From a virus, in the IMG/VR virus record IMGVR_UViG_3300045988_169928, positions 32,001 to 96,000 of that record: DNA of 64,000 nucleotides; one strand, 5' to 3'. The position numbers were made by a program, and so were the translations under genes. Shown in pieces: positions 3,001 to 52,428 of the stretch. The stretch's first letter is position 1; each line of letters opens with the position of its first letter. The notes beneath the pieces were generated by a model. That model was not told the DNA's origin. It saw only the letters and a list, made by a program, of their open reading frames with translations, and did no database searches.

Positions 3001-6000
3001 CAAAAGTGGCAACAGTAGTGCCTCGCCCAGAAACAGCTAACTTAGATTGTAATAAACCAGACGTTTGAATATAAAGGTCTTGATAATTAGTTGTCGCGGC
3101 TTGAGAAACAATACTAATTTTTAGCATTCGTTCATTGTAGTAAACCCCATTCAAACTTTGTGGGTTAGTAAATTGACTATTATTACCATCTAAAGTGGAA
3201 TTTCCTTGATGGTTATTAGTACCATTAGAAATAAAATTGTGATCACTATCTGCAAACTCAACACTAGCACTAGTAGTTATTCCCGGATAAGCAGGATAAT
3301 CGTAGTGAGTTAGGAATACCCGTTGGCCCTCACTAATTGGATACCAAGGTGTATAGTATTTATTTTGTAACCAACTAGCATAGATACTGTCAGAAGGGTT
3401 AGGCGACCAAGGGTGGGCAACGGTACCTTCCTCGACCATTGGTAATCGTACATAAGCATCACAACTTTCACTCTTAGCATGGTAGATGATATGTGCTTTG
3501 TTTGCACTATTAACAGTTCCGCTGACAGCATATCTTGTCCAGTTGCTAGTTAAGGTGACTACTTTTGTAAAATCACCTTCACGACCAATCATAAATGTGC
3601 CAGACCCTTTCATTTCGACTGAGAACGTTTCTGAATCACCAATCGCAAATGGTTCTGTACTATTAGCATAGATAGCATTCCATCTACCATAGAATCCACC
3701 ACTGCTTGTGGTGCTTGTGATATGTGCTGTTGCTATGCCATCACTACCGGTATTCCAATCAACGGTTGGATTGTTTATATCTGTATTTGCAAAAGATTTT
3801 GAATTAAGCCATAGGTTTAGTCCGCCTCTATTGACAGAACTACCTTTTTGCAAAGTAGTTAAGTCCCAATAGTTACTACCCTGTGCTACCGTAATACTAT
3901 CGTCCCTAGTGTAATCTTTAATTGCATTCCCAGCAACTAACTTTACACTCCTAAAGGAAACGGTACCCTTAGTTTCACTATTGTAAACTTGACCCAATAA
4001 AGCAGTTAAAACAGACCCTTTATCCCACGTACCAGAAACAGTACACGTATAAGTTACCCAATCAGTAGTTAGTAATAACTTAGTCTCACTATCTGTACTG
4101 GTAAAGGTGCTAGTTTGGTTTGGAACACTAGGTGAAGTGGTAACTGATACTTGGGTGGTTTTATTCTGTAATTGTGAATATGCGTTCCCCCAAGCAGGGT
4201 ACATATGAACATAATCGCCGCTAACGGTACTTTTAGCTTGAACTTGGAATGTATAAGTAGTATCAGTTGAAGTATAGTCAAAAGGATAATCCCCATTGTA
4301 AGTGCTAGTCGAATCTAGAACAGGATTTGAGTAGTAAGTAACATCATCAACCATTAACAGGTTTTTATCACCATTGATATTGGCCTGTAAATTACTATCT
4401 AATGACTGAATAGTCAATTGTTGTAGTGTCCAATCGCTTTGAGTGAATGCACCGCTTGGTCTAGCAGTTGTACAGAAATAAGTTGACCCAGATGTTGTCC
4501 AAATATCCCCTAAATCATAGGGAGTAGTTGGGGTAGAGGTAAAGTTACGTTTCTTAGATGAATCAAACATCTTTACCCATGTGTACTTGGTAGGGTCATC
4601 TGAACTGGTTAGATTGTAATCAGTATAAGTACCAAAATAATTATAAGAATTATTACCAGGTGTATCTGTAAATCCTACACTACCATCTGCTGAATTAGCA
4701 TAAGCAATATGGAAATAAGTAGTTTGACCATCTGCACCTGGCTTACCTGGAACCCCATCGGCACCCTTAATTAAACTCCATGTATAATCAGTAGCTGTAC
4801 TTGACTCATTGCTACTTTCCTTGTTGTAAGCTATCCCGATATAGCTCATTCCCGTTGGTGAGTCGCTCATGCTACTCCCGCTACTATCAGTGGCATACTT
4901 AATCCACGTATAGTAAGTTTTGCCATCTACACCCTTAGCTCCTGGAATACCTTGGTCACCCTGATCACCTTTGGGACCTTGTACTAATTGCCAAGAGTAA
5001 AGTGCTGGATTAGTGCTATCAGTTTGTATGAAGTCCGTATAACTACCAATGTATTTTCTAGAACCAGGAGTATCAAGAGAAAAGTTTGTTTTACCATCAC
5101 TGCTATCAGCATAGGCAATATGGAGGTATGGTGTCTTACCATCAGCACCTGGCTTACCCGGTACCCCATCTTTACCATCTGCACCATCTGCACCCTTGAT
5201 TAATGACCAAGCGTATTTAGTAGGATCAGTGCTATCTTCAGATGTAAAGTCAACATACATACCAATATAAGTTCGATTGCTATCTGATACTGTAAAGTCA
5301 GTTTTACCGTCTAAAGAGTTAGCATAAGCAATATGAGTGTAACTTGACTTACCATCTGCACCAGCAGGTCCTTGAATACCTTGTTCACCTTTTGGGCCTT
5401 GAAGACCTTGTAAACCCTGTTCACCAGGGTCACCCTTTAGTCTAGACCATGTGTACTTAGTATGATCAGAGGAATCTTCTTCAGTAAAGTCAGTATAAGT
5501 ACCAACATATAAAGCATTAGCAAAGTAAGTTAAGTTAAAGCCATTAGTACCATCACTACTATTAGCATAGGCAAAGTGTACATAACTTGTTTTACCATCA
5601 GCACCTGGTTTACCCGGCACCCCATCTTTACCATCTGTACCATCAGTACCTTTCATTAATGACCACGTGTACTTAGTAGGGTCAGTGCTATCTTCAGATG
5701 TAAAGTCAACTAGCAAACCAATATAAGAAGCACCACTAAAGCTATCTACACTAAAATTACTCTTACCATCAGCACTAGTTGCATAAGCAATGTGGGTATA
5801 ACTAGTTTTACCGTCTGTACCAGGAATACCTTGTGGACCCTGGGTAGGAACAACTACCCATGTACCATTTTGATACTGTTTTAGTGTACCATCTGTATCT
5901 GTCCAAAAGTCACCATCATTAGGGTCAGCTGGGGCAGAACTAGCAACATAATTATTGTTAACATTATTATCAATAAACTGTACCCAATTCTTGCTAGAAA

Positions 6001-16900: not shown

Positions 16901-18396
16901 GTAAACGTATCTAGATTGCCACCACCAACAGGGCGAGTATAGGTTACTGTTTTACGTGAAGTAAAGCTAACCCCATTAACCACCTTAACAGGTTGGTTAA
17001 TCAGCTCATACTTACTACCGTCACCCTTATAGTAGTGACCTTCATTGGTAGTAGTTCCTGTATCGTTAGCAATTCGTACCCTTAAATTAGTTGTCGAATC
17101 AGTGGCAATCGAATAACCTTGAACATATGCTTGACCCTTATCTACATCTAACAAAATCTTGTTAGCGTCCATTGGGTCTTGAGCACCCTTAGTTGAATCA
17201 GAGTTTAAGTGAGGGTGAACCTCAAAGCCTTCTGTTCGGAAAGACCCTGACTGGTCATAAGTCCGCTTAGCTAAAATCTTGGTGATATTAGTGTAGTCTG
17301 GACGAACCTCACTTTGGTTAATAACGTTATCTTGGAATACAACGAAGTCAACGGCTGAATTATCATTATAGGTTAATACCACTTGATAATTCAAACGGTC
17401 AGCCCCAGCTAAACCATTAGTAACCGTACCCGGGGTATCATCTAATAAATCCTTATCATCGGCACTAGTAACAATCGTTTCATTTAATGCTAAACCAATT
17501 GTTTCCTTACCAGTCCCGGTAATGGAAAATGTTTGTTCATCAAATTCACGAACTAGCCCACCTAACCATACTCGACCAGCGGTAACTTTGTAATTCTTAA
17601 CCTTCTCTGTGCTAGAAGCAGTGGTTGTGTCCTTACTAGAAATTACATAAGGCTTTTCGGTTGTTCCTTCCACAACCATTGGGTTATTAATTACAACCCC
17701 TACAATGGAATTTGAGTTGTCATACCCCGCATTAATATATAATGCTAAGTCTGTATTACCAGAAATCAGGGTATCGAACACAACAACCACTTTGTGTGCA
17801 GTAGTAGTATTAATGTTTACCTGATTATTATTTGAATCAATGTTGTAGTTCGCACTCGCCATATCTGTTAATGACGAATTAAGCATTGCTACTCCATCAA
17901 GTGTCCACTTCTTTAAAGTAAGTTGAGAACTATCAAAGTCCAGATTTAACTTATCTAGAATACCCGTAGTCTTGGTAACGTTAAGGGCAATAGTTAGACC
18001 TAAGCCCTTAGTAACATTAACACTGAAACCCATTGCTGATTGGTCTGTGCTAACGTTAGCCGCACTGGTAAAGTTAATGTTACCCTTAGCTACATAATCA
18101 GTCGTAGAAAGGGTTGCATTAGTAGCACTAAGAGTGGCGACACTAAATAGGTTTTGACTATTACTGGTAGAAGAAGCCGTAGTAGCTACCGGTACCACCT
18201 GCATACCAGAAACTACCGCACCCTCGGCAAACACGGTTGATCCTAGCATATTTAACTGGTCATTTTTAATTGATTGTTCTTCTAATAACTCTTGGGAAAG
18301 GGCGGGGCGTCCCGGACGAAATAGCACCTCGCTAAAACGCTTTGCCCGATTAAATTTATTATTGTAAGGCAAAACGCTTGTATCAATTGTTGCCAT
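13915..18396 (-). CDS. Large tail or baseplate structural protein, possibly hub/Tal-like.
   Basis: ORF of 1,493 aa, two genes downstream of the tape measure protein. I see no recognisable catalytic motif. Confidence 0.5.
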   Translation of the reverse strand: MATIDTSVLPYNNKFNRAKRFSEVLFRPGRPALSQELLEEQSIKNDQLNMLGSTVFAEGAVVSGMQVVPVATTASSTSNSQNLFSVATLSATNATLSTTDYVAKGNINFTSAANVSTDQSAMGFSVNVTKGLGLTIALNVTKTTGILDKLNLDFDSSQLTLKKWTLDGVAMLNSSLTDMASANYNIDSNNNQVNINTTTAHKVVVVFDTLISGNTDLALYINAGYDNSNSIVGVVINNPMVVEGTTEKPYVISSKDTTTASSTEKVKNYKVTAGRVWLGGLVREFDEQTFSITGTGKETIGLALNETIVTSADDKDLLDDTPGTVTNGLAGADRLNYQVVLTYNDNSAVDFVVFQDNVINQSEVRPDYTNITKILAKRTYDQSGSFRTEGFEVHPHLNSDSTKGAQDPMDANKILLDVDKGQAYVQGYSIATDSTTNLRVRIANDTGTTTNEGHYYKGDGSKYELINQPVKVVNGVSFTSRKTVTYTRPVGGGNLDTFTPDNVTYIRQVYDNTNQYTAGVDFTYVNNVIHWGQDLSGKPLAGANVPNQGQSYTVVYDYSTNAVQGTDYTVVSDGGTTYIDIDDSNGAKPVAGSTIIVSYVYFEARIDMIRITMDNSNPFKVIEGQPAPLASVTPPVVNDPYTLELGYVLIYPNSHNAVFTMQTVTRQTFETLQQWGRRLTNTEYNLAIANMNQTVARSEDPSLMKDVLSDSFNTINNRDDENSTVAYDFENGEILLPSQAMADLTPNVNFDSSQVAIKGSLVTPPYHEEVAINQPISTGTTNVNEFNIFSANGTLTIDPASDNWIDTDSTTVTRETDAGKVSLNKWWYHTNGDLAVGRTGKTQSYADAISQQYQYSNLQGINWINEGQQTGYMLTDGGSTTTESAIEYIRQRTISFVAQNLPAFSDGYKITIDGVAVLDPTPASDDYKGTNGAFKTNANGEIRGTFTIPGGVIRCGTRTVKIIDNANDQASTNYIAQGTLKTTENIIEKRVYSVDIVDPLAQSFTIGETRQLSSVDLYFYKKADKSDTAHTSDLIVQIRELSDDGYPNNVVRTSVTLTPDQIQVSDDGSLGTRVTFTDSVTLTGNRGYAIVLISDSNAYEVFSATKGQKVVSAGTSATVYNTNPNAISNKDPNATGKNVQISNTVTVSVGDTLTSAPNSNGVMFISNNAQTWTADGTSSIKFAVNVCKYQQNGEILFDPIVIADWVKSSETWIKDLGDNLDGKSSTNKNRLTALDRLAALTSYLTYQNTSMNWYIRVLQGDSSTYTGASVSTALANCPWLALPVNNNNQAMPSATSTDGVPAVTSDDSIQTVDGEVISFKNTFAMQLKADFNSDDYIAPVLTTEDLSLVAVLTGKAASYESINVDESGDAAFNYVKLQYDAYIPEVGTALPQVNPMYSVDGGTTWYNFPSGGGASSTTTKTNATSSTPTSTKAQTNYFTRYVYEAVVPTATDQNHLATQFKVRLYLQSPNNFRTPRVRKLSCYLQYDPSKKVS

Positions 18397-18440
18397 TAAT
18401 TTTAGTCCTTTCTATAAGGTTTGTTCTACTTTAATATAGT

Positions 18441-18785
18441 CTAGTGTTCCTCATTGACTACTTGTAGTTCTTCTTGATCGGTCTTTTTTCCATACTCAAA
18501 AATCTTCTTGGGGTTAAAGCCGTCCCAATAATCAATAGGGTTGTTATCCTTGTCCACAACCTTAACTACCGGGAATGACATTGCATTATAACGGGTCTTT
18601 AACTTATCTACCAAGTGTTCCCGATAAGCAACCTTGTCCGGGTCATCAGTCGTGAAATCAGCTAGATTAGGCTTTGATTCATCACCATAGTAGTTAGTAG
18701 CAACAGCGGACTTCATGCCCCGCAACAGGGCCATCGTACGCATACAATTAGAACAGTCTGTCTTTTCATAGATTACAAAGTGCAT
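18441..18785 (-). CDS. Glutaredoxin / NrdH-like small redoxin.
   Basis: ORF of 114 aa. The N-terminus VIYEKTDCSNCMRTMALL (CxxC) and the later FPVVKV fit a thioredoxin fold of the glutaredoxin type. Confidence 0.55.
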   Translation of the reverse strand: MHFVIYEKTDCSNCMRTMALLRGMKSAVATNYYGDESKPNLADFTTDDPDKVAYREHLVDKLKTRYNAMSFPVVKVVDKDNNPIDYWDGFNPKKIFEYGKKTDQEELQVVNEEH

Positions 18786-18797
18786 TCTAGTTCCTCC

Positions 18798-21700
18798 TTA
18801 ATGTGAGTAGTAGTCTAACATTATCTGTTGTTGGCTATTATTAACCCACGCATTAAATGTATCGTTAATGATACTATCTATAATATCATTTTTATTCCGG
18901 CTTTGAACGGCTTGTGACGTATCTATTTTAACTTTTATTTTCGGAGCATTTCTCTTTACCCTATGAACAACGCTATTAGCTTGGTTAAGGGTTGTGTAAC
19001 GAGTCTGCAAAGCCCTCAAGTCAAGCACAGATACTGGGGCACTTTCTCGGCTAGTACACATACCTTGAATAGGGCCTGTCATACTCCCCCCGGTAGCATG
19101 AGTTACTAAGCCCCCATTAGCATAACCTCGGGTAGGGCCAGAAGGCGACCAACCAGCGTGACCATAGAGATAGCTGGCCCAGTTAGCAATGTTAAAGAAA
19201 GCATAAAGTTGATCAACCCCGGAAAGGATATTATCGTGACCCTTAACTTTATACTTGTTAAAGGTTCCTTGAATCATCTGTAATAGCCCTTTAGCCGGGT
19301 CACCATTAGCTGAATTAACATCTTGAATTTGTTGAGTAATTGTTTGATCATAGTTTGATTCACCAGCAATTAACTTCATTAAGTTTTCTAGCTGTGAATC
19401 ACTAATGTCAACCCCCATTGCCTTAGCAACTTCCTTGGCCTTCTTTAACCAGTATTCCTTTGACTTAGTTGCCCCATCATTGGAAACGTCACCAGCAGTC
19501 TTAGAATCACTTGAACCATTCTTGGCCGCATTCTTAACTTTCTTATATATCTCGTTGAACCACATTCTCAAATGTTTAATTAATTGCTTTTGAGAAGCAT
19601 TAACATCTTTGTGTTTAACACGATATACGCCTAGCTCGGACAGAAAATGTAAAATCCCGTCCTTAATACTAGTAAGAATACTTTTATGCTTAGCTGACTT
19701 TTTACGTGGTGTATATGCTTGACTATTTTGTGTACGTGATTGTGTACGTGATTGTGTACTGGTCATCTTGGCTTTGTTATCCTTGTCTTTGGTACTTGCC
19801 TTAGCATTGCCTGACATTAATAACAAACCAGTTCCAATCCCAACCCCTATACCAACAATGGTACCAACTTTACCTGTCTTAGGCATTTTAGACAGAACCG
19901 AAAGCCCAGATTTAGCAACACTCTTTATACCAGCCCCCATTGTCGCCATTGTACCACCTTCAATAGCGGCATTGATAATACCATCACCAGCTCCCATCAA
20001 GGCACTTCCACCAATAATTCCCATTGCACCTATCTTTGGGTGAGAATTGACAAAAGAACTTAGATTACGTCTTAAACCATCTAGTGATTGGGACGCTTTA
20101 ATTTGTGATGATTGAATTGCTTGCTGTTGGGAGCGAATGGAGCTAGTACCAGTCTTATGATACTTCTTACTATTTACCCCTTTACCTTTAGTCTGTTTCT
20201 TAACGTTAGCACGGGTAAACTTGCCATCAGCATACAACTTGACTAATGAATTAGCCTGTTCATATGATAGTGAGTTTCCAGACAAAGTTACCAAGTTTTG
20301 AGTAGTAACTGCAATTGCCCCGGACTTGCTACTGGTTTGCTGTCTAGCAGTCCGATATAAGTTACCAATAGGTGTCTTGTATAGATAAGGGTCTGACTTA
20401 GCCCGTTGTGCAGTCTTTAAGGCTACCATATTACCGGATTGATTATACCCAGTAAAGTTCTTGTTATCTAACCATAATGATAACTGTTGGTTTTGGTTAT
20501 TAGCATTATTAGATACATTAGCTAAACCAGAATAGGCTTGGGCACCCGCACTACCTTGCCAAGAAGAACCAGTCTTACTCATCATTGACTGGAAACCAGC
20601 AATATTAATCTGATCATTAGTGGTCAACTTACCACTAGTTGCCGCTGTCTGATACATACTAGATAAGGCTTTTAATTGGGAATCAGCCTTCGCACTAGTA
20701 TGAGAATTGGTTAAGCTATTCTGAATTGCGTCTGCTAAACGTTCACTATCACTTGCTGACAAGCCTTGCGTATTAGTAAGCCCAGCCACACCTAATAAAT
20801 TAACAACTGTATCGTTACTTGCCCCGTTTGTAAGAGCCAAAGCTCCCCAAGTGTTAGTAAGACGAGAAATAGACTTGTTTGATAAATTACCTTTACCAGT
20901 ATTGCGAGTATACGCCCCTAAATAAGCTGAACTTTCTGATAAGTCCATTCCTAACTTATTATTACCCAAGGTGTTGACAATGCTGTTATCACCACCGCCC
21001 CGTGCATACATAGCACCGGCAATATTGTTAAAGTTAGTAAGACGGGCATTACTACCTTGTGATACATAATAAGGGCCAGCAATTAAAGCGGTTCTAACTG
21101 CTTGACGAATTAAGAAAGAATGGTGATTGTGGATATACCCAGCAATAGAATCATTGCTAGGTAATACCTTAATGGTATCTTTGGTATCAGTATTATTAGT
21201 AACATTATCAATACTGGTCTTAGCGTGAATTGCTTCACCAGTCCTAGTAACCGCTTCTTGAGCTTGAGTTAGCCGATTAGACAACTCATCTAGATACTTA
21301 CCACTCTTTGATAAGTTATTTAATTGCTCCCTAATTCCTGCTAGGGTGTTTACATCATCGACACTTAAACTATCTTGGCCCTTAATTTGATCTTGTCGAG
21401 AACTTAATTCGTCAATCTGGGATTGAATGTTATTCCGTTGATCAGTTACTTGGCTATCTAAATCAGTTATTTTTTCTCGGGTATACTGATTATTTGATAC
21501 ATACTCCTGATACTTTTGGTAAGTAACAACCCCAGAATCGACACTCTGATTCCAACGATTAGATTGAGTTGTTGATCTTAAAACGATATTCTTAACTTCT
21601 TTACCTAATTCAGAATTAACAAAATCGTTGGCTTGTTGTTGATCAGCATACTCTGAACTCTGATATACCTTTGATGAAGATAGATTAAATGACTGAATAT

Positions 21701-36246: not shown

Positions 36247-37716
36247 TTAATAAGATAAAACTTGGCCCGGGTAAATCAAGTTAGCATTGGAAAGACCATT
36301 CTTAGCCTTTAATGAATACCAAGATACCCCTAACCGACTAGCAATACCAGATAGTGTGTCACCAGACCGGACTGTATAAGTACGTGAACTAGATTGACTA
36401 CCACTAATCTTTAAAACTTGACCCGGATAGATCCAGTTTGGGTTAGAAATACCATTTAGGTTAGCAATGGCACTAGCGGTTGTCCCATAACGACTAGCAA
36501 TACTAGAAAGGTTGTCACCACTCTTAACCGTATAAGTAGTAGCCGATGAACCATTAGAACTACCACTAACCTTAATTACTTGACCCGGATAAATCAAGTT
36601 AGCATTACTAATTCCGTTTAAACTAGCCAAGGCACTGGTTGACATTCCATAACGACTAGCAATCCCCGATAAGGTGTCACCACTCTTAACAACGTAAGAA
36701 TTAGTGGAAACATTATTAGCAATTGGGGCCGTGGCCTTATTTGAAACACTACCACCCTTATCACTATCAGCAACTCGGAGTGTTTGTCCCGGGTAGATCA
36801 AGTTCGGGTTAGAAATACCATTCAAGGTAGCTAAGGCGTTTACAGTCATGTTGTACTTGCTTGCAATGGCTGATAAGGTATCACCACTCTTAACAGTATA
36901 ACTGTGTGTATCTTGGTGCAGTTGTTGACCAGTTACAGTTGCCGGTGTCTTAGTTGCTGGGTGTTGAGCATTCCCGTTCTTATAACCATTCTCGGTAATA
37001 CCAGTAAAGTCTACATTTCCATCAAGACCACCAGCAATATAGGTTGATGTAAATTGTAACATCTGGACATTATCAAAGGACGGGAAATAGTTATAATTTG
37101 GTTCGGTGGTCACTTGATAATTTGGATATTCGGCCAACCATAACGGGTACTGATTAGCAATCTCTTGCAAGCCATCTGTCCCCAAGTGGTTAATCAAGAA
37201 TCCCTTATAACCGTAAAGAACAGCCGTGTAACCAGCGTCTTGCACCCGCTTTAACGCATACTCAACACTTGCCGTGTCTGGATTACCAGATTCCACGTCA
37301 AGGGCCACAATCGATCCTTTAGGTGTTTGAATCCTAGGAAGGTAGTAGTTAAGCATTTGGTCGGCTTGCCATGTACCACTAAACTGGGCAAAAATGTACG
37401 TATGGGCACGCTTGTTTTGGGCGATGGTATTAGCAACTTGAGAAGAATAAGTGCTTTGAGGTATAAAGGTACCATTGTAATACCCACCAATTTGGGAGAT
37501 TGAAAAGTCGTCTCGTGAATATCCCCAGATACCAGAATTACCTTGATACTTTGACCAGTCCACACCATAGTGCTTAATTGTTGCGGCATGGGCAACTAAC
37601 GTAGTAGATACCTTATTTTCAGCTAAAGGTACAGCACCAGTAGCAACCGGAGTTGATAGAGCAAGAGTAGCCATCGCTAATACAATTGGCACTGTGTATC
37701 GTTTTTTAAATGTCAT
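36247..37716 (-). CDS. Endolysin: N-terminal signal peptide, GH25 muramidase domain and four C-terminal LysM repeats.
   Basis: ORF of 489 aa. [28 protein letters not shown] is signal-peptide-like. [11 protein letters not shown] ... [14 protein letters not shown] is a GH25 signature. There are four copies of [14 protein letters not shown]......L..LNGISN.NLIYPGQ.L. Confidence 0.85.
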
Positions 37717-37804
37717 GAAAATTAAGTCCCCTTTCTTCTTTTAATTTAGCTAAAAAGCCCAAGTGATTAAACTTAGGCTTTAATGTTAGCTTATAAATTA
37801 ATAT

Positions 37805-38329
37805 TTACTTGGCTGGGGAATCTACCTTTGGTTCTGCTTCCGCTTCCGGCTTTGGTTGTGCTTCTACCTCCGGTTGTGCTTCAACTTCTTGCTTTGGTTC
37901 AGCTGGCTTGTTATCTACTACCAAATCCCCTGCACTCATGTATTGTGCGTGAGCCTGTTCAAGCGTATCTACCTTTGGTTCAACCGGCTTCTTGTATACT
38001 GCCAAAGTCCCGGCACTCTTGAGTTGTGAATAAGCCTGTTCAAGTGCATTCCCTAACACTTGTTCATCAACCTTATCATAACCTAACTTAGCTAATTCTT
38101 CCTTAGCGATTGCAAGGGCCTTAGCAAACTGTTCATTACCAGTTAAGCTATCCAAAACCCCGGTCTTTTCAGCTACTACCACAGCGTCCTTAGCGACCAT
38201 TGGTAACACACCAATCAAACCTGATAAAGCAGAACTCTTACCCATCGCCTTAGCAATATAACCAGTAATAACTGGCAAAGCCAACACAGCTAAAGCTACA
38301 ATTACATCGGCGAAATTACGTACTACCAT
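37805..38329 (-). CDS. Membrane-anchored protein with repeats; a component of the lysis cassette.
   Basis: ORF of 174 aa with an N-terminal TM segment (VIVALAVLALPVITGYIA). Two ~27-aa repeats (..LEQA.AQYMSAGDLVVDNKPAEPK) are followed by EVEAQP/EAEP repeats. It is translationally coupled to the upstream gene. Confidence 0.45.
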   Translation of the reverse strand: MVVRNFADVIVALAVLALPVITGYIAKAMGKSSALSGLIGVLPMVAKDAVVVAEKTGVLDSLTGNEQFAKALAIAKEELAKLGYDKVDEQVLGNALEQAYSQLKSAGTLAVYKKPVEPKVDTLEQAHAQYMSAGDLVVDNKPAEPKQEVEAQPEVEAQPKPEAEAEPKVDSPAK

Positions 38330-38707
38330 TTTGATTAATCTCCTTTGCCTGATCCAAGTTAGTATTTAGACGGCTCACCTTTTTGGTTAAATCATCTATC
38401 TGCTTATTTAATATATCAATTTTATCTTTAAGTTGTTGGTTTTCAAACTCTTTTTCTTCTCTTAATCGGCGTTCATTAATCAGATTGTTATTTGCGTCTG
38501 TCAACTTACTATTAAGTTCATCAACAGTCTTGTTTAATTTATCCACCCGGTTAAATAGTTCCCGTAAGGTTGAATTAAACTGTTCAATTAACTGATTATT
38601 GCTGTTAACTGTCACTTCCTTACGTTTAGCCACATAGGATAGAATGGCGGACAAACTAGAACCACCTAGAAACGAAACTAATAAGGTTACAATAGCATTA
38701 TTCATTA
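38316..38707 (-). CDS. Holin-like protein: one N-terminal TM segment plus a charged coiled-coil C-terminus.
   Basis: The likely true start is the ATG at complement 38705-38707 (MNNAIVTLLVSFLGG..) with a GGAGGT RBS, overlapping the upstream stop as ATGAATAA. The ORF track begins it at 38753. Confidence 0.5.
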
Positions 38708-39156
38708 TTACCTCCATTATCATCAGAACTAATGGAAGATAAACTAGATTCAATTAACAGGCGAACCACTACAAAGCCAATTAGAACCGTGCCGGCTGAA
38801 AACGGCGGGAGAAATGGTTTAACCATATCCTGAACAAGATAGGCCATGAATAACGCTAACCATACCCCCGTTCCTAAGGCCAAGACAATCTGATCTAGAT
38901 GATAACGATGGGTTCGGAGTAAACCAACCACCAATAACAAAAAACCAGTTAAAATTAATATCATGGATCCCCAAGGGCCACCAAAGAATGAAAAAGCGTG
39001 CAAAACCGGCTTAGTAGCGTCATCTTTAAAATATGGGTGGACTAAGAAAGACAAACCTACTAAGATTGATTCGACACCTGTGACAATCAGAAAGGTGTAT
39101 CGTCTAAAAAACATTTTTAATTTTACACCACCTACATTATAATTGAACTGAACCAC
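38698..39156 (-). CDS. Membrane protein with four predicted TM segments; holin or antiholin candidate.
   Basis: ORF of 152 aa. The four hydrophobic stretches are FLIVTGVESILVGLSFLV, SMILILTGFLLLVVGLL, IVLALGTGVWLALFMAYLV and VLIGFVVVRLLI. Confidence 0.5.
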   Translation of the reverse strand: MVQFNYNVGGVKLKMFFRRYTFLIVTGVESILVGLSFLVHPYFKDDATKPVLHAFSFFGGPWGSMILILTGFLLLVVGLLRTHRYHLDQIVLALGTGVWLALFMAYLVQDMVKPFLPPFSAGTVLIGFVVVRLLIESSLSSISSDDNGGNNE

Positions 39157-42121: not shown

Positions 42122-42352
42122 TTAATTCTCATGGTGATAGACAATGGTTAATACAGTTGCATACTGTGCAATATCAACTAATTCAGTGTCAATCTTAAAA
42201 GCGTCAACCTTGACGTCTTGCTGGTCATACTTAGCTAACCATTTATTTAACTTATTAACACATTTTTTTACATCTTCATCACTATAGTATGGTTCAATAT
42301 ATGCTGATTTATTAACCTTATTACCATAGAAACTATTAGTTAGATACTCCAT
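42122..42352 (-). CDS. Small hypothetical protein.
   Basis: ORF of 76 aa. Confidence 0.4.
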   Translation of the reverse strand: MEYLTNSFYGNKVNKSAYIEPYYSDEDVKKCVNKLNKWLAKYDQQDVKVDAFKIDTELVDIAQYATVLTIVYHHEN

Positions 42353-42899
42353 AGTTCTTCTACCCCCACTTCATGTACCTTACGTCCGTCTGGGAATACC
42401 ACTGTGAACTCCTCTTTTAATAAGTTCACGCCAAGTAACCTAACTGGCTTACCTTGGTACATTACTGCTTGTCCAGTCTGAAAACAATGTTCTGCTTGAT
42501 TCATTTCCATCTTAACTACTGACCTTCTTATCCGAGAAACAGTGCTACTAACAGTAAACTAACCAGACTACCTACGATCACACTGGTGGTTAGGTTAATT
42601 AAATCATAGTTAAACTGATCTTCTTCTTTCATCTAGTCCATCTTACTTTCTATTTGATTGTCTTTATTATCTACCACTACGTCCTAATTGTCAATACTTT
42701 TTTCTAATCAATGGTAAAAATAAAGTTCTGACTATTTCTATCTTAATAATATTAACCTAGTTAGTTGTTCTAATCTTTATCCCTAATTAATGAATGTTTA
42801 TTCCAGTTTTTCAGTTATATTCATTTCTATTAATTCTTACAGTAAATACTGGTGTTATATCCTTGTTGTAAGAATATTCATTTCTAACTGTTATATGTA

Positions 42900-44050
42900 T
42901 ACTAGCTAACTCCGTCCTAGCTATTCTAACCTAACCTAAGAGTTAAACCAAGAATGTTAACCAAGAAGATAAAACTTTAAGGGTTAAACCTTTAAGAGTT
43001 ATCTCTTTCTGGATAACAGTTTACAAGGAAGTAACCTGTTATCCAAAGTTTAACCTTGACAATATGTGAACACCCGAGTTTGGGTTGAGGGAGTGAAGGG
43101 GAAGGTTAAACTTTTACCTCCTACTCCGGACAGAAAATACAGATTAATACATAGGAATTAACTGATGGAATAGGGGGTAAGAGTTGTAAGTGATTAATAT
43201 TGGGAAACACCGAGTTTGGTATATCGGTCGTTCGGGTATAGTACATCACAGGGGAACCTTTACTATGAAACGTATTTCAACTGGATCAATCTAACAGCTT
43301 TTTAAAACCTCCGGAAGTCCCGGTTTCTGATCATTGGTATTATCACTAATACCTTTAACCATAATTAGTTAAGCAGTGTTCACCATTCCTGATTACTTTT
43401 TAGCTTACCTAGTTCCAACAAGTGTCGGTCTGTTAGCTCCTCCCCTTGGTTACTTGTAACTTAATGTTTAGCATATCAAGACCAAACATCACCAGTTACA
43501 AGACCGTTAGGGAACTTCCCTACCAGCCGTGCCTTATAGTAGCACTCACTAATACTAAAGCTACGGCCCTAGGTTTTAATTGGTTCCCCCATGAATCAGG
43601 CTAATTTGTAGCTTCGCATGAATTTTATAGTTAGGCTCATGACACCATCTCAATCGGTTTTAAGACCCTTATTCCTCTCTGGCAACCTAGTAGCAAGTCA
43701 TATGCTATTCAGTTGTGATAGTCCAGTCTTGGATATAGAACCCGGAACTTGCTTGATTTATAGTTCCCAAACCTGTAATTGTAACGCGCCTCATGAGACC
43801 TTGCCTTGTGGGGGGCGTTCACCTCGTTATCCCATTGCCTAATCAAGTAGGCTTAACTCAAACGGTGAAGTTGATATTTAACTGTAAGATACTAGGACAC
43901 ACGGTTTTGCCCTTATCCTAGTAGGGTACTCGTAGCTATTTCAACGGGTATTGAACGTTCTACTCATACTCACCAATCTCTTGGTTTTAATTTAACCCTA
44001 GTATATCACAACCAACAATAGAGGCAAGGGATTTGCCTAAATTTATCAAA
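42900..44050. ncRNA. Candidate large structured ('ornate') non-coding RNA of the GOLLD/ROOL class. Strand and exact ends are undetermined.
   Basis: About 1.4 kb with no plausible CDS between divergent operons (42650..44067). It is GC-richer than its flanks and dense in nested inverted repeats, for example GGTTAAACCTTT..GGATAACAG[16 nt]CTGTTATCC..AAAGTTTAACC at 42982-43056. CCGAGTTTGG is repeated at about 43075 and 43211. It lies about 1 kb upstream of two tRNA genes. Confidence 0.4.
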
Positions 44051-44067
44051 AAAAATTTGAAATTCTC

Positions 44068-44096
44068 TTGACGTTGATAAAAAGTGGGTATAAACT
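44068..44096 (+). promoter_or_regulatory. Sigma70-like promoter for the 44128 operon.
   Basis: TTGACG (44068-44073) is followed about 15-17 nt later by TATAAA (44089-44094). The ATG at 44128 has the RBS AAGGAGA. Confidence 0.5.
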
Positions 44097-44127
44097 AGAA
44101 CCATGAAATAGAAAAGGAGACACAATT

Positions 44128-44451
44128 ATGCACTGGTACCGAATGAATTTAGGAACTAATTTCCCAGTTTTAAGCGAGAGAACCACCAGTGCCTTTGTCA
44201 ACGTATTACGGGATAATAACTCCCCAGAACATAAGGCTGTTGAAAACTACGACCACTTTGGCTTAGTTCACATTGGATTAGATGTTCACGGGGTATATTT
44301 ACAGACACAATCAAATAGCATTGAATGTGCCCACGAACGATTCACAGAGATTATCTTGCAAGTAATTAAATCTCTTAATATCAGCGAAGTTAACGATGAA
44401 ACTATTGAACACGCCGTAGTAGAACAAGGAATCATTAGACAAGGGCTATAA
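44128..44451 (+). CDS. Hypothetical protein.
   Basis: ORF of 107 aa with a strong RBS. Confidence 0.5.
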   Translation: MHWYRMNLGTNFPVLSERTTSAFVNVLRDNNSPEHKAVENYDHFGLVHIGLDVHGVYLQTQSNSIECAHERFTEIILQVIKSLNISEVNDETIEHAVVEQGIIRQGL

Positions 44452-45763: not shown

Positions 45764-48739
45764 ATGAAGATCAAGATTATTATTGATTCATATCAGGAAG
45801 ATATGTTCAAAGTGGTAAATAATCAAGTTACCCAACAGGTTGCTAGTTCTAAGCTAGGTCGTATCTTGATGAACGAAGTGATTAATCACCCCCAAAAGGG
45901 GTTAGATACGAAAGATCATGATTTAAGCGTTGGCTTCTTTATTCAGGAAGTTCCTCGCATGATTAACGAAGATACCTATGCTAAGCCTAAAGCTGATACC
46001 ATTAACAAGTATTTAACTAAACTTATCTTTAACATCAAACAGGATAAGCCCGATATTGTAGTTGTGTTTGGGTCTTGGTGTGCTAACGCTTTATGTAAGC
46101 GTACAGAAGTGAAGAAGAAACTATATGAGCTGACTAAGATTGACTTAGATGGGTTCACCACTTACTTTGCCTTTAGCCCTTCTCTCCGGCGGTTAAACCA
46201 ATTGTCACCAATGGAGCATGACCAATACCTAATTCAGAATCGGACTATTAATCGTTTCTTAAAGGGTGGGTTTGTCAACACCCTCCCCCAGTTTGGTAAG
46301 TATGAATTACTAGATGATTTTGATAAGGTAAAACAAACTTTCGATTATGTTTCATCGTTACCAGATAAGCACGTTATTGCGATGGACTTTGAAACTAATA
46401 CCCTAGAAACCTATCGTTCAGGGGCCAAGGCAATCATGCTAAGTATGTCGTGGGAAGAACACCAAGGGGTTTCAATCCCCCTCGAACACAAGTTGTATTC
46501 TAACCTTTGGACAAAAGAACAGTTCGACTATATCATTAATTGGATTTTATCCTTCTTTGATTCCCCACATTGGAAAGTCATGCACAACGCTAACTATGAC
46601 CTTCAAATGTTAATGGATATTTATGGACTAAAACACGCCCAAAGAGTTTTAGATACCATGCTAATGTATTATGAAATGTACACCGAAGAAAAGGGTGCGC
46701 AACGTGGTCTAAAGCACCTTGCCTATCTTTTTACGGACATGGGAGGCTATGAAGATGAACGTGATCTGGCTATGGAAGATTACCTACAAAAGCACCATGA
46801 TCGTTGGGAAAAGGAACAAAAAGAAAAGTTAGCTCGGGGTGAGATTAAACGGATTGTTAAATCACAGTATGAACCCCCTAAAAATGAAGTTGACGGCGGT
46901 AAATTTAACTTTGAATGGTTACCTTTAGATTTACTATATAAGTATGCTAGTGCTGATACAGACGTTACCTTACAGCTGTATCACAAGTTCTTGCCAAAGA
47001 TTAGAGAACACCAAAAATGGTTTGATATGGTCTTTAACTACTACCCTAAGTTAGTAGAAACTCTATCCTTTATGCAAAGCACTGGGTTCAAGGTTGATCG
47101 GGATAAGTTAAATAATTATCACGACCACTTCCTAAAAGAACAAGAAGATATTACTAAGAAGATTTATGATACAGTCCCCGAAGTCAAGGAACTAGAACAT
47201 ATACGTCAGGGTTATGTTCAGGAGAGGGAAAAGATTAAGCAGATTAAGCCTGCTGATCGAACCCCAGAACAGAAACAGAAATTTAAGGACTACTTCAAAT
47301 ACTCTAAAAAAACTAATGGCCTATATGGTTATCAATTTAACCCGGGTAGTCGTGATGATGTAAATTATGTATTATATAAGATGATGGGGTATGAACTACC
47401 ACCAGAAAAAGAATATCTGTCGGACAAGTATTCCCGATATGCTGGGAAGGAAGATCAGATTACTTGGAAGATGTATAAGTCTGATCGTAAGGTTGCTTTA
47501 CCATATATAAAGAATAAGTATCATGAACCATTGGCTGACTTATTACTTACTTACTCTAAGGATAAGAAGATGGTGAGTGGGGTTACTGATTCTTATGGTA
47601 GTTTGTTAGATGACAATAGTATTATCCACACTAAATTCCAGATTACAGGAACCTCGACTGGCCGTCTTGCTAGTCAAAACCCGAACATTCAGAATATCCT
47701 CAAGCCAACTTCTAACGTTTATGACCCTAATTATAATTATCCCGTTAAAGCATTATTCGTGTCTAGGTTTGATAATGGATATATTTTCAACATTGACTAC
47801 AAGTCCCTAGAATACTTTGTGGCTGGATTGATTACCAAGGATTTAGGGCTTATGCAGACGTTAATGGACGGAGCCGATATTCATAAGTCTAATGCTAGTA
47901 AGGCGTTCCATGTTCCTTTTGATGAGGTTACTGCTGACCAACGTTTTAAGGCTAAATCAGTAGGTTTCGGGCTTATGTATGGCGAGACAGAGCAAGGGTT
48001 AGCTGAAACATTGCATTCCAGCCTAGAAGAAGCTAAGGACACAATGCAAAAGGTGTTAGGGGCCATGCCGACCCTATCTAAGGTCATTGACGCCGTACAC
48101 AATTTTGTTGAACAACGCGGATATGTTGAAACTATTCGGGGGCACGTTCGCCGTCTCCCTGACGCAAAGTATGGTAGCTATGGTAGTAAGGCAAGGGCGC
48201 TTCGACAGTCCTTCAATGCGCTTGTCCAAGGTAGTGGGGCTAACGTTACTAACACAGCCTTGATTAAGGTTAGAGAAGTGCTACGGGGCTATAAGTCAGA
48301 ACTGGTTGCAACGGTTCACGATAGTATTGTGCTAGATGTCCACCCTGACGAAGTAATGATAGTTCCTAGATTAGTTAAGGAAATCATGGAACAGGTAGAA
48401 ATTCCTGCCTTCATTCTTAACATTGCTGATTTTCCTGATTTACGAATTGATGATAAGTACAAGATCAATGATAAACAGTTCCGTTTCCCACTCTTTGCGG
48501 AAATTGAATTTGGCCACGTATATGGAGAAGAACTCGACTATGATGTTGATCTAATAGGCCAAGTTGGTATGGACAGGTATTATGATTATGCGAAGAAGGT
48601 TAAGTATTCTAAGGATAAACTTAATACTGACTTAGGCAAAGAAGATGATGAAGATAAGAAGGAACAATTAGTTAAGGAACATGATGAATATCTTAACCAA
48701 CTAAAAACTGGTTTGGTAGGTGATAATAATGACTGTTAA
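45764..48739 (+). CDS. DNA polymerase I-type (family A) with a 3'-5' exonuclease domain.
   Basis: ORF of 991 aa. Exo I is VIAMDFETNTLE. Motif A is DYKSLEYFVAG. Motif B is RFKAKSVGFGLMYGE. Motif C is VHDSIVLDV. There is an N-terminal extension of about 190 aa. Confidence 0.9.
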   Translation: MKIKIIIDSYQEDMFKVVNNQVTQQVASSKLGRILMNEVINHPQKGLDTKDHDLSVGFFIQEVPRMINEDTYAKPKADTINKYLTKLIFNIKQDKPDIVVVFGSWCANALCKRTEVKKKLYELTKIDLDGFTTYFAFSPSLRRLNQLSPMEHDQYLIQNRTINRFLKGGFVNTLPQFGKYELLDDFDKVKQTFDYVSSLPDKHVIAMDFETNTLETYRSGAKAIMLSMSWEEHQGVSIPLEHKLYSNLWTKEQFDYIINWILSFFDSPHWKVMHNANYDLQMLMDIYGLKHAQRVLDTMLMYYEMYTEEKGAQRGLKHLAYLFTDMGGYEDERDLAMEDYLQKHHDRWEKEQKEKLARGEIKRIVKSQYEPPKNEVDGGKFNFEWLPLDLLYKYASADTDVTLQLYHKFLPKIREHQKWFDMVFNYYPKLVETLSFMQSTGFKVDRDKLNNYHDHFLKEQEDITKKIYDTVPEVKELEHIRQGYVQEREKIKQIKPADRTPEQKQKFKDYFKYSKKTNGLYGYQFNPGSRDDVNYVLYKMMGYELPPEKEYLSDKYSRYAGKEDQITWKMYKSDRKVALPYIKNKYHEPLADLLLTYSKDKKMVSGVTDSYGSLLDDNSIIHTKFQITGTSTGRLASQNPNIQNILKPTSNVYDPNYNYPVKALFVSRFDNGYIFNIDYKSLEYFVAGLITKDLGLMQTLMDGADIHKSNASKAFHVPFDEVTADQRFKAKSVGFGLMYGETEQGLAETLHSSLEEAKDTMQKVLGAMPTLSKVIDAVHNFVEQRGYVETIRGHVRRLPDAKYGSYGSKARALRQSFNALVQGSGANVTNTALIKVREVLRGYKSELVATVHDSIVLDVHPDEVMIVPRLVKEIMEQVEIPAFILNIADFPDLRIDDKYKINDKQFRFPLFAEIEFGHVYGEELDYDVDLIGQVGMDRYYDYAKKVKYSKDKLNTDLGKEDDEDKKEQLVKEHDEYLNQLKTGLVGDNNDC

Positions 48740-50130: not shown

Positions 50131-50880
50131 ATGAAATATAAAGAATTTATTCAAGCAGTTGATTCATTAACTAATGAGGCTTTAGTAGCAAACAAGGAGG
50201 CTATTCCTTGGAAGGTCGATATTGATGATCAAGATGTTAAAGTAGTTAATCAAAAGACGGGTCAGCCATTGCTTAAAATCAGTAAACATACTTATGGTAC
50301 TATGCTAGTATATCAACTAACTGATTCAACAGCAGTTAGTATCTTTGAGGAGGCGGTTTTGCTTAATGAAACTCCTCTAGATGAACGTGATGAAGTTGTT
50401 AATTACAATCCCTTACATGATTCCATTAACTTTTTGAAGGAAGTATCTAGCCAACTTACTCGAGGGTTGACCCAACAAAACTGGAACTCAAATGGGGAAG
50501 AATATCGGACGTTTTACTTTGTATGTTTCAAGTTGTGGGCAACCAAAGAATTTGTAACAGTTAATGGCCCACACTTACAAGGGTCTTTATCATTAAAATG
50601 TAAGTCTACGGACACTTTTGAGGATAAGATTAAGAGTTTGATTCATATGGCTAACATATTCAAAGACGCCTTATCTTTGCGTGAAGAAACCATTAATTCG
50701 GCTTTGGAAGTTCTAGATGACCATAAAGATGATCCATCACTCCAGTTTAGCATGGGTAGGATTATCATTAATAACAAGCATATTATTATCTCTACTGATT
50801 CTGGTGCCTACTTCATGTGGACAAATAAGCCAACCTATTTTGGATCACAAAAAAAGTTCCACGAAATCCTTGACGACTAA
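50131..50880 (+). CDS. Hypothetical protein.
   Basis: ORF of 249 aa. Confidence 0.45.
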   Translation: MKYKEFIQAVDSLTNEALVANKEAIPWKVDIDDQDVKVVNQKTGQPLLKISKHTYGTMLVYQLTDSTAVSIFEEAVLLNETPLDERDEVVNYNPLHDSINFLKEVSSQLTRGLTQQNWNSNGEEYRTFYFVCFKLWATKEFVTVNGPHLQGSLSLKCKSTDTFEDKIKSLIHMANIFKDALSLREETINSALEVLDDHKDDPSLQFSMGRIIINNKHIIISTDSGAYFMWTNKPTYFGSQKKFHEILDD

Positions 50881-50899
50881 ACTTTAGTATGCTATTATA

Positions 50900-51480
50900 A
50901 TAAATGTAAACTTGAAGTGGGTGAATAAGGGTCTTGCAAACCCGCCCCTCATGATTACCTGTAAAGCACCTAAGACGTGGTTAAATGGTAGCTTAACTAT
51001 TTCAATTGGTAACAGGTAATAGTGTTACCAACTAGAGAAAAAAATCTAGGGTGGTGGTAATCATGGAAATTAGCTTGAGGATTTAGGGTAGCCACGGACT
51101 GGCTAACCACAATACTATACCCGTAGTTAAATCGCCTTGAACAAGCGAATGACCCAAAGCGGGAGGTCTCATTAAGGTAGTTACCGATGAAGCGTGGTAA
51201 CACGTGTATAACAGTCCAGTGGTGTATGAGTAGCTAACGGTACATAAACAGCAAATTTATGTATATTACAATCTATGCTTACGCTTAGTGAAAGTTGGTG
51301 GGTACCGATCCCAGCCCAGCCTTGGCCATTTGCTATCAGAGCTGTTTGTTGACGAATAAATAGTAAGCCTGATAGGTGCTGTCACCTAATAAAGTCTGTT
51401 TGCTGATATTCCACGTAAACCAATACGCAAGTTTATAAAAGAAGCTCACTACCCAATATGGGTGGTGGGCTTTTATTGTA
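50900..51480. ncRNA. Second candidate structured non-coding RNA of about 0.6 kb, possibly ROOL/GOLLD-class.
   Basis: A 615-nt gap (50881..51495) in an otherwise tightly packed plus-strand operon. It is GC-richer than its flanks and has multiple stems, for example TTGGTAACA-ggtaatag-TGTTACCAA at about 51004-51029 and GTTACC-gatgaagcgt-GGTAAC at about 51180-51202. Confidence 0.35.
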
Positions 51481-51495
51481 TATTACAATTGATAG

Positions 51496-52428
51496 GTGGT
51501 GAAAAGAATGTCTTTAAAAGATATACAAGATTATTTTACAATTGTAGATGACGCAGGTAGCTTACAGAATTATACAGGCAACCCAGATTATGCGTTAGAT
51601 GATAAATGGAAGAATATCAGCCTAGATGATTTAGGGTTAAATAAAGATATTATTCAACAGGAATTACTTGGTTTAGGGAGGGATTTAGTAGACCCAGTAA
51701 CTGGTGAATCCTATTCAGATGAGTTCTATCAGAATATGTTAATTCGGGCAGTCTCACAAACAGAGAAGAAGTTTGACTTGGCAATTCTTCCTCGGTTACA
51801 AGTTGATCGGCTAGACTATCACCGGAATGATTTTAATGCGTTTGCTTATATGAATACAACTTTACGGCCAATTTTGACGGTAAAAGATTTAACATTGTAC
51901 TATAACAATCAAACGATTATGCGAGTTCCTATGGAATGGGTCAAGGTTAATAATCGTTCGGGTCAGATTCAGGTTTCTCCTAGTATCTTAATGCAAGGGT
52001 TAAATACAACCATTAACCCGACTATCTACCCAATCCTTTCTAACCCGTATGGTATGGCTCCAACACCATTCCAACAGATTGAAGTAAGTCCTCAAATGCT
52101 AGGGGTAACATCTGTTGTGGGTATGATGCCGGCTAGTGATCGAATTGGTGAGTTCCATGACTATCAGATTCAGCCAGACGTCCAATCCTATGTGGCTAAA
52201 CTAGCCGCAATTGAAATTCTAGAAAAGTGGGGTCGTAACATTATCGGGGCTGGGATTGCTTCCTATAATGTTTCGATGGACGGAATTTCAACGGGAATGA
52301 ACACCACAGCAAGTGCCGAAAATACGGCTACCACGGCTGATATTAAGTTACTACAATCAGATATGAAATCTTTAGCAGACGGTATCAAAGCATACTATGG
52401 TAACCCAGAAATTGGTTTTTACAATTAA
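51496..52428 (+). CDS. Hypothetical, probably structural, protein. Its last 18-22 codons are duplicated, with synonymous recoding, at the end of the next ORF.
   Basis: ORF of 310 aa (the probable start is the ATG at 51508, with the RBS AGGTGGTGAAAAG). The C-terminus is ..DMKSLADGIKAYYGNPEIGFYN. Confidence 0.55.
   Translation: MVKRMSLKDIQDYFTIVDDAGSLQNYTGNPDYALDDKWKNISLDDLGLNKDIIQQELLGLGRDLVDPVTGESYSDEFYQNMLIRAVSQTEKKFDLAILPRLQVDRLDYHRNDFNAFAYMNTTLRPILTVKDLTLYYNNQTIMRVPMEWVKVNNRSGQIQVSPSILMQGLNTTINPTIYPILSNPYGMAPTPFQQIEVSPQMLGVTSVVGMMPASDRIGEFHDYQIQPDVQSYVAKLAAIEILEKWGRNIIGAGIASYNVSMDGISTGMNTTASAENTATTADIKLLQSDMKSLADGIKAYYGNPEIGFYN

Follow-up and report, generated by a model that had tools for sequence, protein, structure and literature searches.

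The DNA analysed here is a window of 64,000 nucleotides (nt), positions 32,001 to 96,000 of the IMG/VR virus record IMGVR_UViG_3300045988_169928. Between two divergent operons it contains a long gap which most likely holds a stand-alone gene for a structured non-coding RNA (ncRNA) of 0.95-1.03 kb, found in LfeInf-like Herelleviridae phages and running on the minus strand from ~43990 to ~43050, probably to ~42966. Comparison with homologous sequences demonstrates that this block is non-coding, that purifying selection acts on its base-paired fold, that it has a dedicated host-type (sigma-A/sigma-70) promoter, and that it belongs to no Rfam family. The element is thus a candidate for a new class of giant structured phage RNA, carried alongside the phage's own ROOL RNA.

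The closest annotated phage is Lactobacillus phage LfeInf (KP054477; Herelleviridae, Hopescreekvirus; host Limosilactobacillus fermentum). The interval flagged in a preliminary description of the window (42650-44067) matches it with 89% identity over 99% of its length (blastn), and LfeInf was the sole match among 50,697 phage records; in the nearest phages beyond it, the DNA polymerase is only ~40% identical. In LfeInf the equivalent stretch is 1.5 kb long and lies between a leftward gene block (terminase to lysin, holin, and on to LysM and small open reading frames, ORFs) and a rightward one (two small ORFs, tRNA-Thr, tRNA-Ser, DNA polymerase and helicase); the only annotation inside it is one doubtful coding sequence (CDS) of 50 amino acids (aa), LfeInf_040.

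A conserved non-coding block and its fold

Homologs were collected by two routes, from contigs carrying homologs of the adjacent 107-aa protein (72-97% identity) and through a spurious 67-aa ORF predicted inside the region by gene callers, the cluster of which holds 25 variants. Together these contigs gave 14 distinct sequences (LfeInf and metagenome contigs). A homolog of the 173-aa protein, with 64% identity, led to a 15th and far more divergent copy of the block, L027 (nhmmer E = 1e-79). The features of the block and its surroundings on which the following analysis is based are:

43047-43989, minus strand: conserved structured RNA core of ~940 nt, from alignment, covariation and the lack of an Rfam match
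42695-42965, no strand: AT-rich spacer (25-29% GC) with insertions and deletions (indels), outside the conserved RNA
43892-43985, minus strand: 5' domain with hairpins H1-H6 (H3 is UUCAAU-ACCC-GUUGAA)
43629-43883, minus strand: domain A, multi-helix, closed by long-range helices (consensus fold; several pairs compensated in L027)
43582-43594, minus strand: 5' strand of the 13-bp helix closing central domain B, ~330 nt from its partner at 43246-43258
43246-43258, minus strand: 3' strand of the same closing helix, also detected as inverted repeat I9
43328-43361, minus strand: hairpin H33 with a GNRA tetraloop (loop kept, stem covarying)
43283-43443, minus strand: junction sub-domain, bounded by the long-range helix 43430-43443 / 43283-43297
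43081-43233, minus strand: 3' domain with H37, the 17-bp hairpin H38-40 and a C-rich tail (43081-43105), from the consensus fold
43618-43842, plus strand: spurious ORF of 74 aa (67 aa in the metagenomes; a different 50-aa ORF is annotated in LfeInf), judged by its codon pattern

The earlier statement that 42650-44067 is free of ORFs was confirmed, as each of the six frames is interrupted by 30-44 stop codons, with all three types represented, and no open stretch exceeds 76 codons. The true extent of the gap without a credible CDS is 42633-44127. The leftward operon had been taken to end at 42352, which is wrong: its real end is at 42632, since two small ORFs (42340-42510 and 42528-42632), both conserved in relatives, had been overlooked. 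A hidden or recoded CDS is ruled out by the occurrence of stops of all three kinds in every frame. That the block encodes one or more small proteins, for example the 67/74-aa ORF or LfeInf_040, is extremely improbable. The 67-aa ORF is open in 13 of the 14 sequences and is picked by gene callers, and a 50-aa CDS is annotated in LfeInf; however, the variable sites are spread 9/8/9 over the codon positions with no third-position bias, 20 variant codons are nonsynonymous versus 7 synonymous, L013 carries an in-frame stop, and there is no ribosome-binding site (RBS). The preliminary description had likewise considered the ORF at 43618-43842 not credible for want of an RBS, and indeed no Shine-Dalgarno (SD) sequence precedes it; it stays open because the underlying RNA sequence is nearly invariant. 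A role of three enriched GGAGG motifs as ribosome or SD mimics was also considered, and was dropped because the two motifs that could be checked are not kept in L027.

The alignments establish that the right two-thirds of the gap (about 43047-43989) form a sharply bounded block, the best-conserved segment of the neighbourhood. Core identity is 89-98% in the 13 closer homologs, whereas the flanking CDSs drop to 69-84%; in individual relatives the block compares with the neighbouring CDSs as 89% versus 69-79% (L015), 93% versus 76-87% (L007) and 94% versus 77-80% (L010). In bins of 100 nt, identity to LfeInf is 85-100% across the core and 96-100% over 43500-43999. Identity is higher in the 5' half (43500-43995), at 93-98%, than in the 3' half, where most lineages are at 85-94% and L023, the closest, reaches up to 98%. 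To the left of the block the spacer displays 72-87% identity, partial coverage and indels of 50-130 nt. The earlier picture of a single GC-rich, highly structured interval therefore stands for the core only: GC content is 39-44% over 43050-44000, compared to 33-39% in the flanks, while the left ~400 nt (42650-43050) are a poorly conserved, AT-rich spacer (25-29%).

The minimum free energy (MFE) of the region was compared to that of dinucleotide shuffles, yielding z-scores of -4.2 for the minus strand and -2.0 for the plus strand. RNAalifold, applied to the 14 sequences, predicted 263-282 pairs in ~40 helices, and in the consensus of 263 pairs 99.4% of the cells are paired. In this set 14 pairs have double changes, against 6.9 +/- 1.3 in shuffled alignments (none of 500 reached this number) and 0-2 when the partners were slid. 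L027, left out when the fold was derived, served as an out-of-sample test; 33 pairs are held there by double changes, compared to 9-19 in slid controls. When all 15 sequences were combined, 43 of the 240 consensus pairs were doubly compensated, versus 10.1 +/- 2.0 in shuffles (0/300) and 3-7 with slid partners. L027 also carries large insertions in peripheral stems while the core blocks are invariant, which is the usual pattern of a large folded RNA. With compensatory changes far above both the shuffled and the slid controls, the suggestion of a large conserved structured ncRNA candidate in a Lactobacillaceae phage was upheld.

These comparisons establish that substitutions preserve a multi-domain fold with long-range helices, a GNRA tetraloop and peripheral stems of variable length. 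In the 5' domain, one pair of H3 is seen as A-U, C-G and G-C, and L027 swaps three of the six H3 pairs with the ACCC loop kept. Two motifs of domain A are the hairpin GGGAAC-UAUAAAUCAAGC-AAGUUCC, which is invariant, and the palindrome CUCAUGAG. The 13-bp helix closing domain B is invariant in 13 sequences, and in L027 three of its pairs are compensated (GGGGGAACC/GGUUCCCC becoming GGGGGGUCA/UGACCCCC). In 12 of 13 sequences the loop of H33 reads GUGA, GCAA or GUAA, and L027 has the last of these; the H33 stem covaries (AU in seven sequences, GC in five) and has four further double changes in L027, where the H34 stem is also among the doubly compensated helices. Long-range pairs of the junction sub-domain covary as well (GC:9/AU:4 for pair 650-787, and AU:12/GC:1). 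The 3' domain, which holds both copies of CCAAACUCGG (repeat D1), varies little, and its pairs are for this reason mostly predictions of the consensus fold.

The repeated motifs noted in the preliminary description are present. CCGAGTTTGG occurs at 43074-43083 and 43210-43219, with no further copy in the 64-kb window, and CATGAAT and CTCATGA occur twice each. In L015 the identical C-to-U change is found in both copies of CCGAGTTTGG. The palindromes UCAUGA and CUCAUGAG (43636-43642 and 43790-43797 in plus-strand coordinates) do not differ among the 14 closer sequences; in L027 the sequence reads CUCAAGAG. It may be speculated that the CCGAGTTTGG copies and the palindromes are candidate sites of tertiary or intermolecular contact. 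The spacer has a direct repeat of its own, the 13-nt ATATTCATTTCTA at 42817-42829 and 42874-42886. Its two copies flank an 8-bp hairpin (TTCTTACA/TGTAAGAA, 42832-42872), in which a C-G pair is compensated to A-T in L007; this arrangement might serve as an operator, as a promoter specific to the phage or as a signal for processing.

It was also considered that the block acts as DNA and is not transcribed into a functional RNA; it could then be an origin of replication, a site for packaging or a regulatory region lying between the divergent operons. Its position agrees with this, at the point where leftward and rightward operons diverge, at the minimum of cumulative GC skew and beside the replication module; an AT-rich stretch adjoins it, and two 9-mers resembling DnaA boxes can be read from the sequence in the hairpin at 43008-43049. 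Those boxes, however, are not kept in LfeInf or L007, and the repeat search found no iterons or repeat arrays but just short two-copy families. A near-invariant stretch of 940 nt with 43 compensated pairs, long-range helices and a GNRA loop is what is expected of a folded single strand and not of a duplex bound by proteins, and a dedicated, conserved promoter points into it. A purely DNA-level role is accordingly very unlikely.

Promoter, strand and transcript ends

The signals found around the block are as follows:

44022-44027, minus strand: -35 element TTGCCT of the RNA's own promoter, in all 15 lineages
44001-44009, minus strand: extended -10 element TGATATACT, found in each of the 15 lineages, L027 among them (consensus of the family: TGnTAnAnT)
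43992-43994, minus strand: predicted transcription start, 7 +/- 1 nt past the -10 element, deduced from promoter geometry
42966-43046, minus strand: compound hairpin followed by a U-rich tract, a putative non-canonical terminator that recurs in most lineages
42666-42694, minus strand: strong sigma-70-type promoter TTGACA-17-GATAAT, serving the leftward operon and matching the consensus at 11 of 12 positions
44068-44096, plus strand: promoter of the rightward (replication-side) operon, TTGACG-17-TAAACT, back-to-back with the RNA promoter

Across the 15 lineages the -35 element reads TTGCCT, TTGCCC, TTGTCT or TTGCTT and the sequence of the 16-nt spacer is variable; the -10 element is TG plus TATACT, TAGAAT, TATAAT or TACACT, so that variation is restricted to tolerant positions. 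Strict conservation begins at 43989, 3-5 nt past the predicted start. Since a sigma-70-type extended -10 promoter points into the block in every one of the lineages, a minus-strand RNA of ~0.95-1.03 kb is predicted. At the other end, a hairpin with a U/C-rich tail is found ~90 nt past the core in most lineages despite their differing sequence, and an RNA ending there would be ~1.03 kb long. The nested inverted repeat reported earlier at 42982-43056 is real (repeats I2, I4 and I12), yet it lies outside the conserved core, in this probable terminator. Of the two operon promoters, the leftward one is kept in LfeInf and in L007-L009, and the TTGAC of the rightward one is kept in the seven sequences that align across it.

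The question of strand had been left open in the preliminary description. Besides the promoter, the RNAalifold energy (-215.8 kcal/mol for the minus strand versus -179.4 for the plus strand) and the G.U polymorphisms (6:1 in helices common to the predictions for both strands) point to the minus strand, from which the RNA is probably transcribed.

Several observations weigh against the reading of a stand-alone minus-strand RNA gene. Many helices never vary among the 14 close sequences, and 56 of the 235 pairs projected onto L027 are broken there, partly through MAFFT misalignment and partly, it is probable, in mispredicted helices; part of the structure model is therefore unsupported or wrong. 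The strand-neutral substitution test leans towards the minus strand by 18 versus 10 pairs but is not significant (p = 0.18); L027 has 13 G.U versus 12 A.C, with alignment noise in its specific transitions, and helices with Watson-Crick pairs only are 7 versus 3 in favour of the minus strand, again not significant and subject to alignment noise. The putative terminator at 42966-43046 is non-canonical and was missed by a simple terminator scan, so that transcription might run on into the leftward operon. The family is narrow, comprising about six lineages of one phage genus, and the trans-acting or oligomeric function considered below is a matter of pure analogy.

One alternative is that the RNA is real and is transcribed from the plus strand. 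The G.U versus A.C counts of the strand-neutral tests do not reach significance, the plus strand too has a folding energy lower than that of its shuffles (z = -2.0), and the hairpin GGCAAGGGATTTGCC at 44024-44038 with its T-containing tail could be a weak terminator. Within this hairpin, however, only the arm that forms the minus-strand -35 element is kept, the other decaying in L013, L015, L018 and L020. The promoter scan found no promoter-like site upstream of the block on the plus strand, an invariant TTGACA at 43057 being without a -10 partner, and the minus strand is ahead in MFE z-score, alifold energy and G.U polymorphisms. Plus-strand transcription is hence regarded as quite unlikely.

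An additional scenario is that the block is a structured 5' leader, or a processed precursor, of the leftward operon, acting in cis on its expression or stability. It shares the strand of this operon and immediately precedes it, the putative terminator departs from the canonical form, and the analogous RNA of Staphylococcus phage K, described below, leads directly into tRNA genes and the lysis module. Between the RNA and the operon, on the other hand, stand a near-consensus sigma-70 promoter (11/12) and ~270-400 nt of poorly conserved, indel-rich AT spacer, and the hairpin and U-rich tract recur just past the core. It would also be unusual for a 940-nt fold to be better conserved than the genes that it regulates. 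A leader function is thus considered unlikely, and an independent minus-strand RNA is the reading preferred.

Comparison with known large RNAs

Bacterial and phage ncRNAs near 1 kb with elaborate conserved folds are very rare, and include the rRNAs, GOLLD, ROOL, OLE and a few others. The block had been proposed to be GOLLD/ROOL-like, and this assignment is unsupported, as Rfam covariance models were blank on the region and on six homologs. A permissive cmscan of 42500-44200 with Rfam 15, on both strands, detected no family beyond noise at E <= 10, the best of 4227 families being TD-2 (E = 0.53, 25 bits versus a gathering score of 48.7, i.e. noise). In the same interval there was no match to OLE, HEARO/IS605-orfB, raiA, T-large, group I/II introns, RNase P, tmRNA, 6S, rRNA fragments or ribozymes. 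In the six homologous copies, including the most divergent (L027), no Rfam family appeared in the region at E <= 1, and ARAGORN detected no tRNA or tmRNA inside the block. A positive control for this blank result is present in the window itself: a genuine ROOL (RF03087) at 50893-51438 on the plus strand, ~7 kb away, matches the full-length model with 124.6 bits versus a gathering score of 99.1. It lies on the replication-module side, between the ORFs 50131-50880 and 51496-52428.

ROOL and the block are both large, ornate, phage- or prophage-borne RNAs of Lactobacillales, often near tRNAs; however, ROOL has ~580 nt (about 550-600) and multiple pseudoknots, whereas the core of the block has ~940 nt (the RNA up to ~1030) with different helices and sequence. 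With GOLLD the block shares giant size (>800 nt), carriage by phages and prophages including those of Lactobacillales, association with tRNAs, and a conserved core with a variable periphery. In GOLLD the 3' region is universally conserved and the 5' region less so (PMC12286853), while in the block the polarity is the opposite, the 5' half being better conserved, and no tRNA is embedded in it. Location in a phage and near tRNA genes is the context in which GOLLD and ROOL are expected, but is not diagnostic. By covariance model, by length and architecture, and by conservation polarity, the element is not GOLLD or ROOL. A divergent member of either family might be envisaged, given the Lactobacillaceae phage, the large size and the tRNA genes ~1.1 kb off in every lineage, and since GOLLD has a variable half, divergent members could escape detection. 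Against this stand the blank cmscan of region and homologs at the thresholds given above, when a real ROOL was readily detected, a length of ~940-1030 nt versus ~580 nt for ROOL, and the conservation polarity opposite to GOLLD; such membership is most improbable.

A closer parallel is found in Staphylococcus phage K. RNA-seq revealed there a long ncRNA (lncRNA) of ~1.15 kb on the minus strand (37679-38832), which is driven by an early promoter of its own and has the highest number of reads (Finstrlova et al. 2022, PMC9241854; the running text of the paper calls it lnc001, its Table 1 lnc002). For phage vB_SauM-515A1 a comparable RNA was reported (PMC10383478). It is located between gp191 and the tRNA cluster, followed by holin and endolysin. 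Both phages are Herelleviridae, and in both an ORF-free element of ~1 kb lies on the strand of the lysis operon, separating this operon from the remainder of the genome, with tRNAs close by and its own sigma-70-type promoter; the block, whose transcript is predicted from sequence, thus agrees in position with the phage K type, which is not a curated family. Neither RNA matches an Rfam family, and lnc001 is no ROOL. The two differ in that the phage K RNA adjoins three tRNA genes of the same strand, whereas the tRNAs of the window are 1.1 kb off on the other strand, and in that the former is known from expression data, the latter from sequence and covariation. At the sequence level, at which they were compared, no similarity was found by blastn or nhmmer and no invariant blocks are shared. 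Two details of the phage K locus (NC_005880, 37679-38832; L024 4680-5833) were recorded in passing. It has two tandem near-consensus promoters (TTGACA-17-TATAAT-like) with a terminator between them. Several stretches with CCUCC lie near the 3' end of the lncRNA region, and one of them, CACCUCCUUUC, has exactly the sequence of the anti-Shine-Dalgarno end of 16S rRNA; taken from the other strand, the stretches resemble SD sequences.

The nearest sequenced Lactobacillus Herelleviridae, the Harbinvirus phages of L. plantarum, have an unannotated ORF-free gap of 1.24 kb at the corresponding divergence of leftward operon and rightward replication module (Semele, NC_047926, 46539-47774; L026 10540-11775). 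Like the block, this gap has a minus-strand extended -10 element, TGGTATACT, at its right edge, back-to-back with a rightward promoter, is strongly structured (MFE z = -5.2, plus strand) and matches no Rfam family; the better-folding strand there, however, is the plus strand. Six L. plantarum Harbinvirus phages share the gap at 96-97% conservation, and LpeD and LP65 keep it in part. No similarity between the Semele gap and the block was found by blastn, nhmmer, shared k-mers or invariant blocks. Judging from these sequence features, the Harbinvirus gap may be another unannotated large RNA. In Lactobacillus phage Lpa804 (MG557979 / NC_048134) an HNH homing endonuclease gene lies inside this gap (17201-19252), which there measures 2052 nt versus 1236. 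Homing endonucleases usually target conserved functional sequence, and the insertion is a further hint that the Harbinvirus gap is a gene.

Proposed role, distribution and neighbouring genes

Our best guess, by analogy with the RNAs compared above, is that the block encodes an abundant, early, trans-acting structured RNA. Host RNA polymerase would transcribe it early in infection, leftward from ~43993, and transcription would mostly stop at the hairpin and U-rich tract near 42966 to give an independent transcript of ~1 kb. This RNA might then act in trans through its three-dimensional fold, as a scaffold, as a decoy, or as an RNA-only or RNA-protein assembly serving host takeover. In function it would resemble the abundant early lncRNA of phage K as well as ROOL and GOLLD, both of which form nanocages, and it might be homo-oligomeric as the latter two are. 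A broader and only tentative proposal is that it represents a third, hitherto undescribed class of giant ornate phage RNA, with no sequence relationship to ROOL or GOLLD and residing together with ROOL in one virulent phage. It would then be the LfeInf version of a general Herelleviridae feature, namely a lineage-specific, highly expressed early structured RNA of ~1 kb at the lysis/replication divergence. Phage K and Harbinvirus would have other versions, and the RNA would serve host takeover in self-assembled form or within a ribonucleoprotein.

Each new class of large RNA has so far brought a new RNA architecture, the nanocages of ROOL and GOLLD being examples. The coexistence with ROOL and the positional match to the top transcript of phage K suggest that Herelleviridae infection may quite generally involve large early ncRNAs that have been overlooked; such generality, if true, would matter for the therapeutic Kayvirus phages, although the narrow phylogenetic range found so far limits it. 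With a defined promoter, sharp boundaries, a fold supported by covariation and a cultivable pair of phage and host (LfeInf and Limosilactobacillus fermentum), the element is directly testable.

As far as the scanned collections show, the RNA is confined to LfeInf-like (Hopescreekvirus) phages. Scans of IMG/VR with a flanking protein and four DNA patterns returned LfeInf alone and otherwise seed-only chance matches, and two scans of 185,579 bacterial species genomes with the invariant blocks as probes returned zero and three matches, the latter again seed-only and due to chance. A metagenome scan by DNA polymerase yielded two contigs, both too short to reach the region. LfeInf-like phages themselves are frequent in gut and fermentation metagenomes. 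No description of the RNA was found in Rfam 15 or in the searchable literature on LfeInf, Hopescreekvirus or new large phage RNAs.

The neighbouring genes give no clue to function. The leftward operon of the window consists of genes for 34-aa, 56-aa, 76-aa, HIRAN and LysM proteins, and continues to holin and lysin; among the flanking proteins HIRAN and a LysM transglycosylase are recognizable, and the remainder have no assignable function. On the rightward side, the tRNA-Thr (45180) and tRNA-Ser (45316) genes given in the preliminary description were verified, ~1.1 kb from the block and on the opposite strand, and tRNA genes are nearby in all lineages checked. The DNA polymerase gene follows at 45764-48739. 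In L022 a Tad2-like gene (5659-5928; PF11195, an anti-Thoeris family) is found between the gene for the 173-aa protein and that for DNA polymerase, the stretch that in the window holds the tRNA genes and lacks a Tad2-like gene, which indicates an accessory position of variable content. In a 97%-identical relative (L004 906-4821, metagenome contig ERZ1026846 NODE-5471), the DNA polymerase match covers 3916 nt for 991 aa; this span implies an insertion of ~940 nt, perhaps an intron or a homing endonuclease, which the polymerase gene of the window does not contain.

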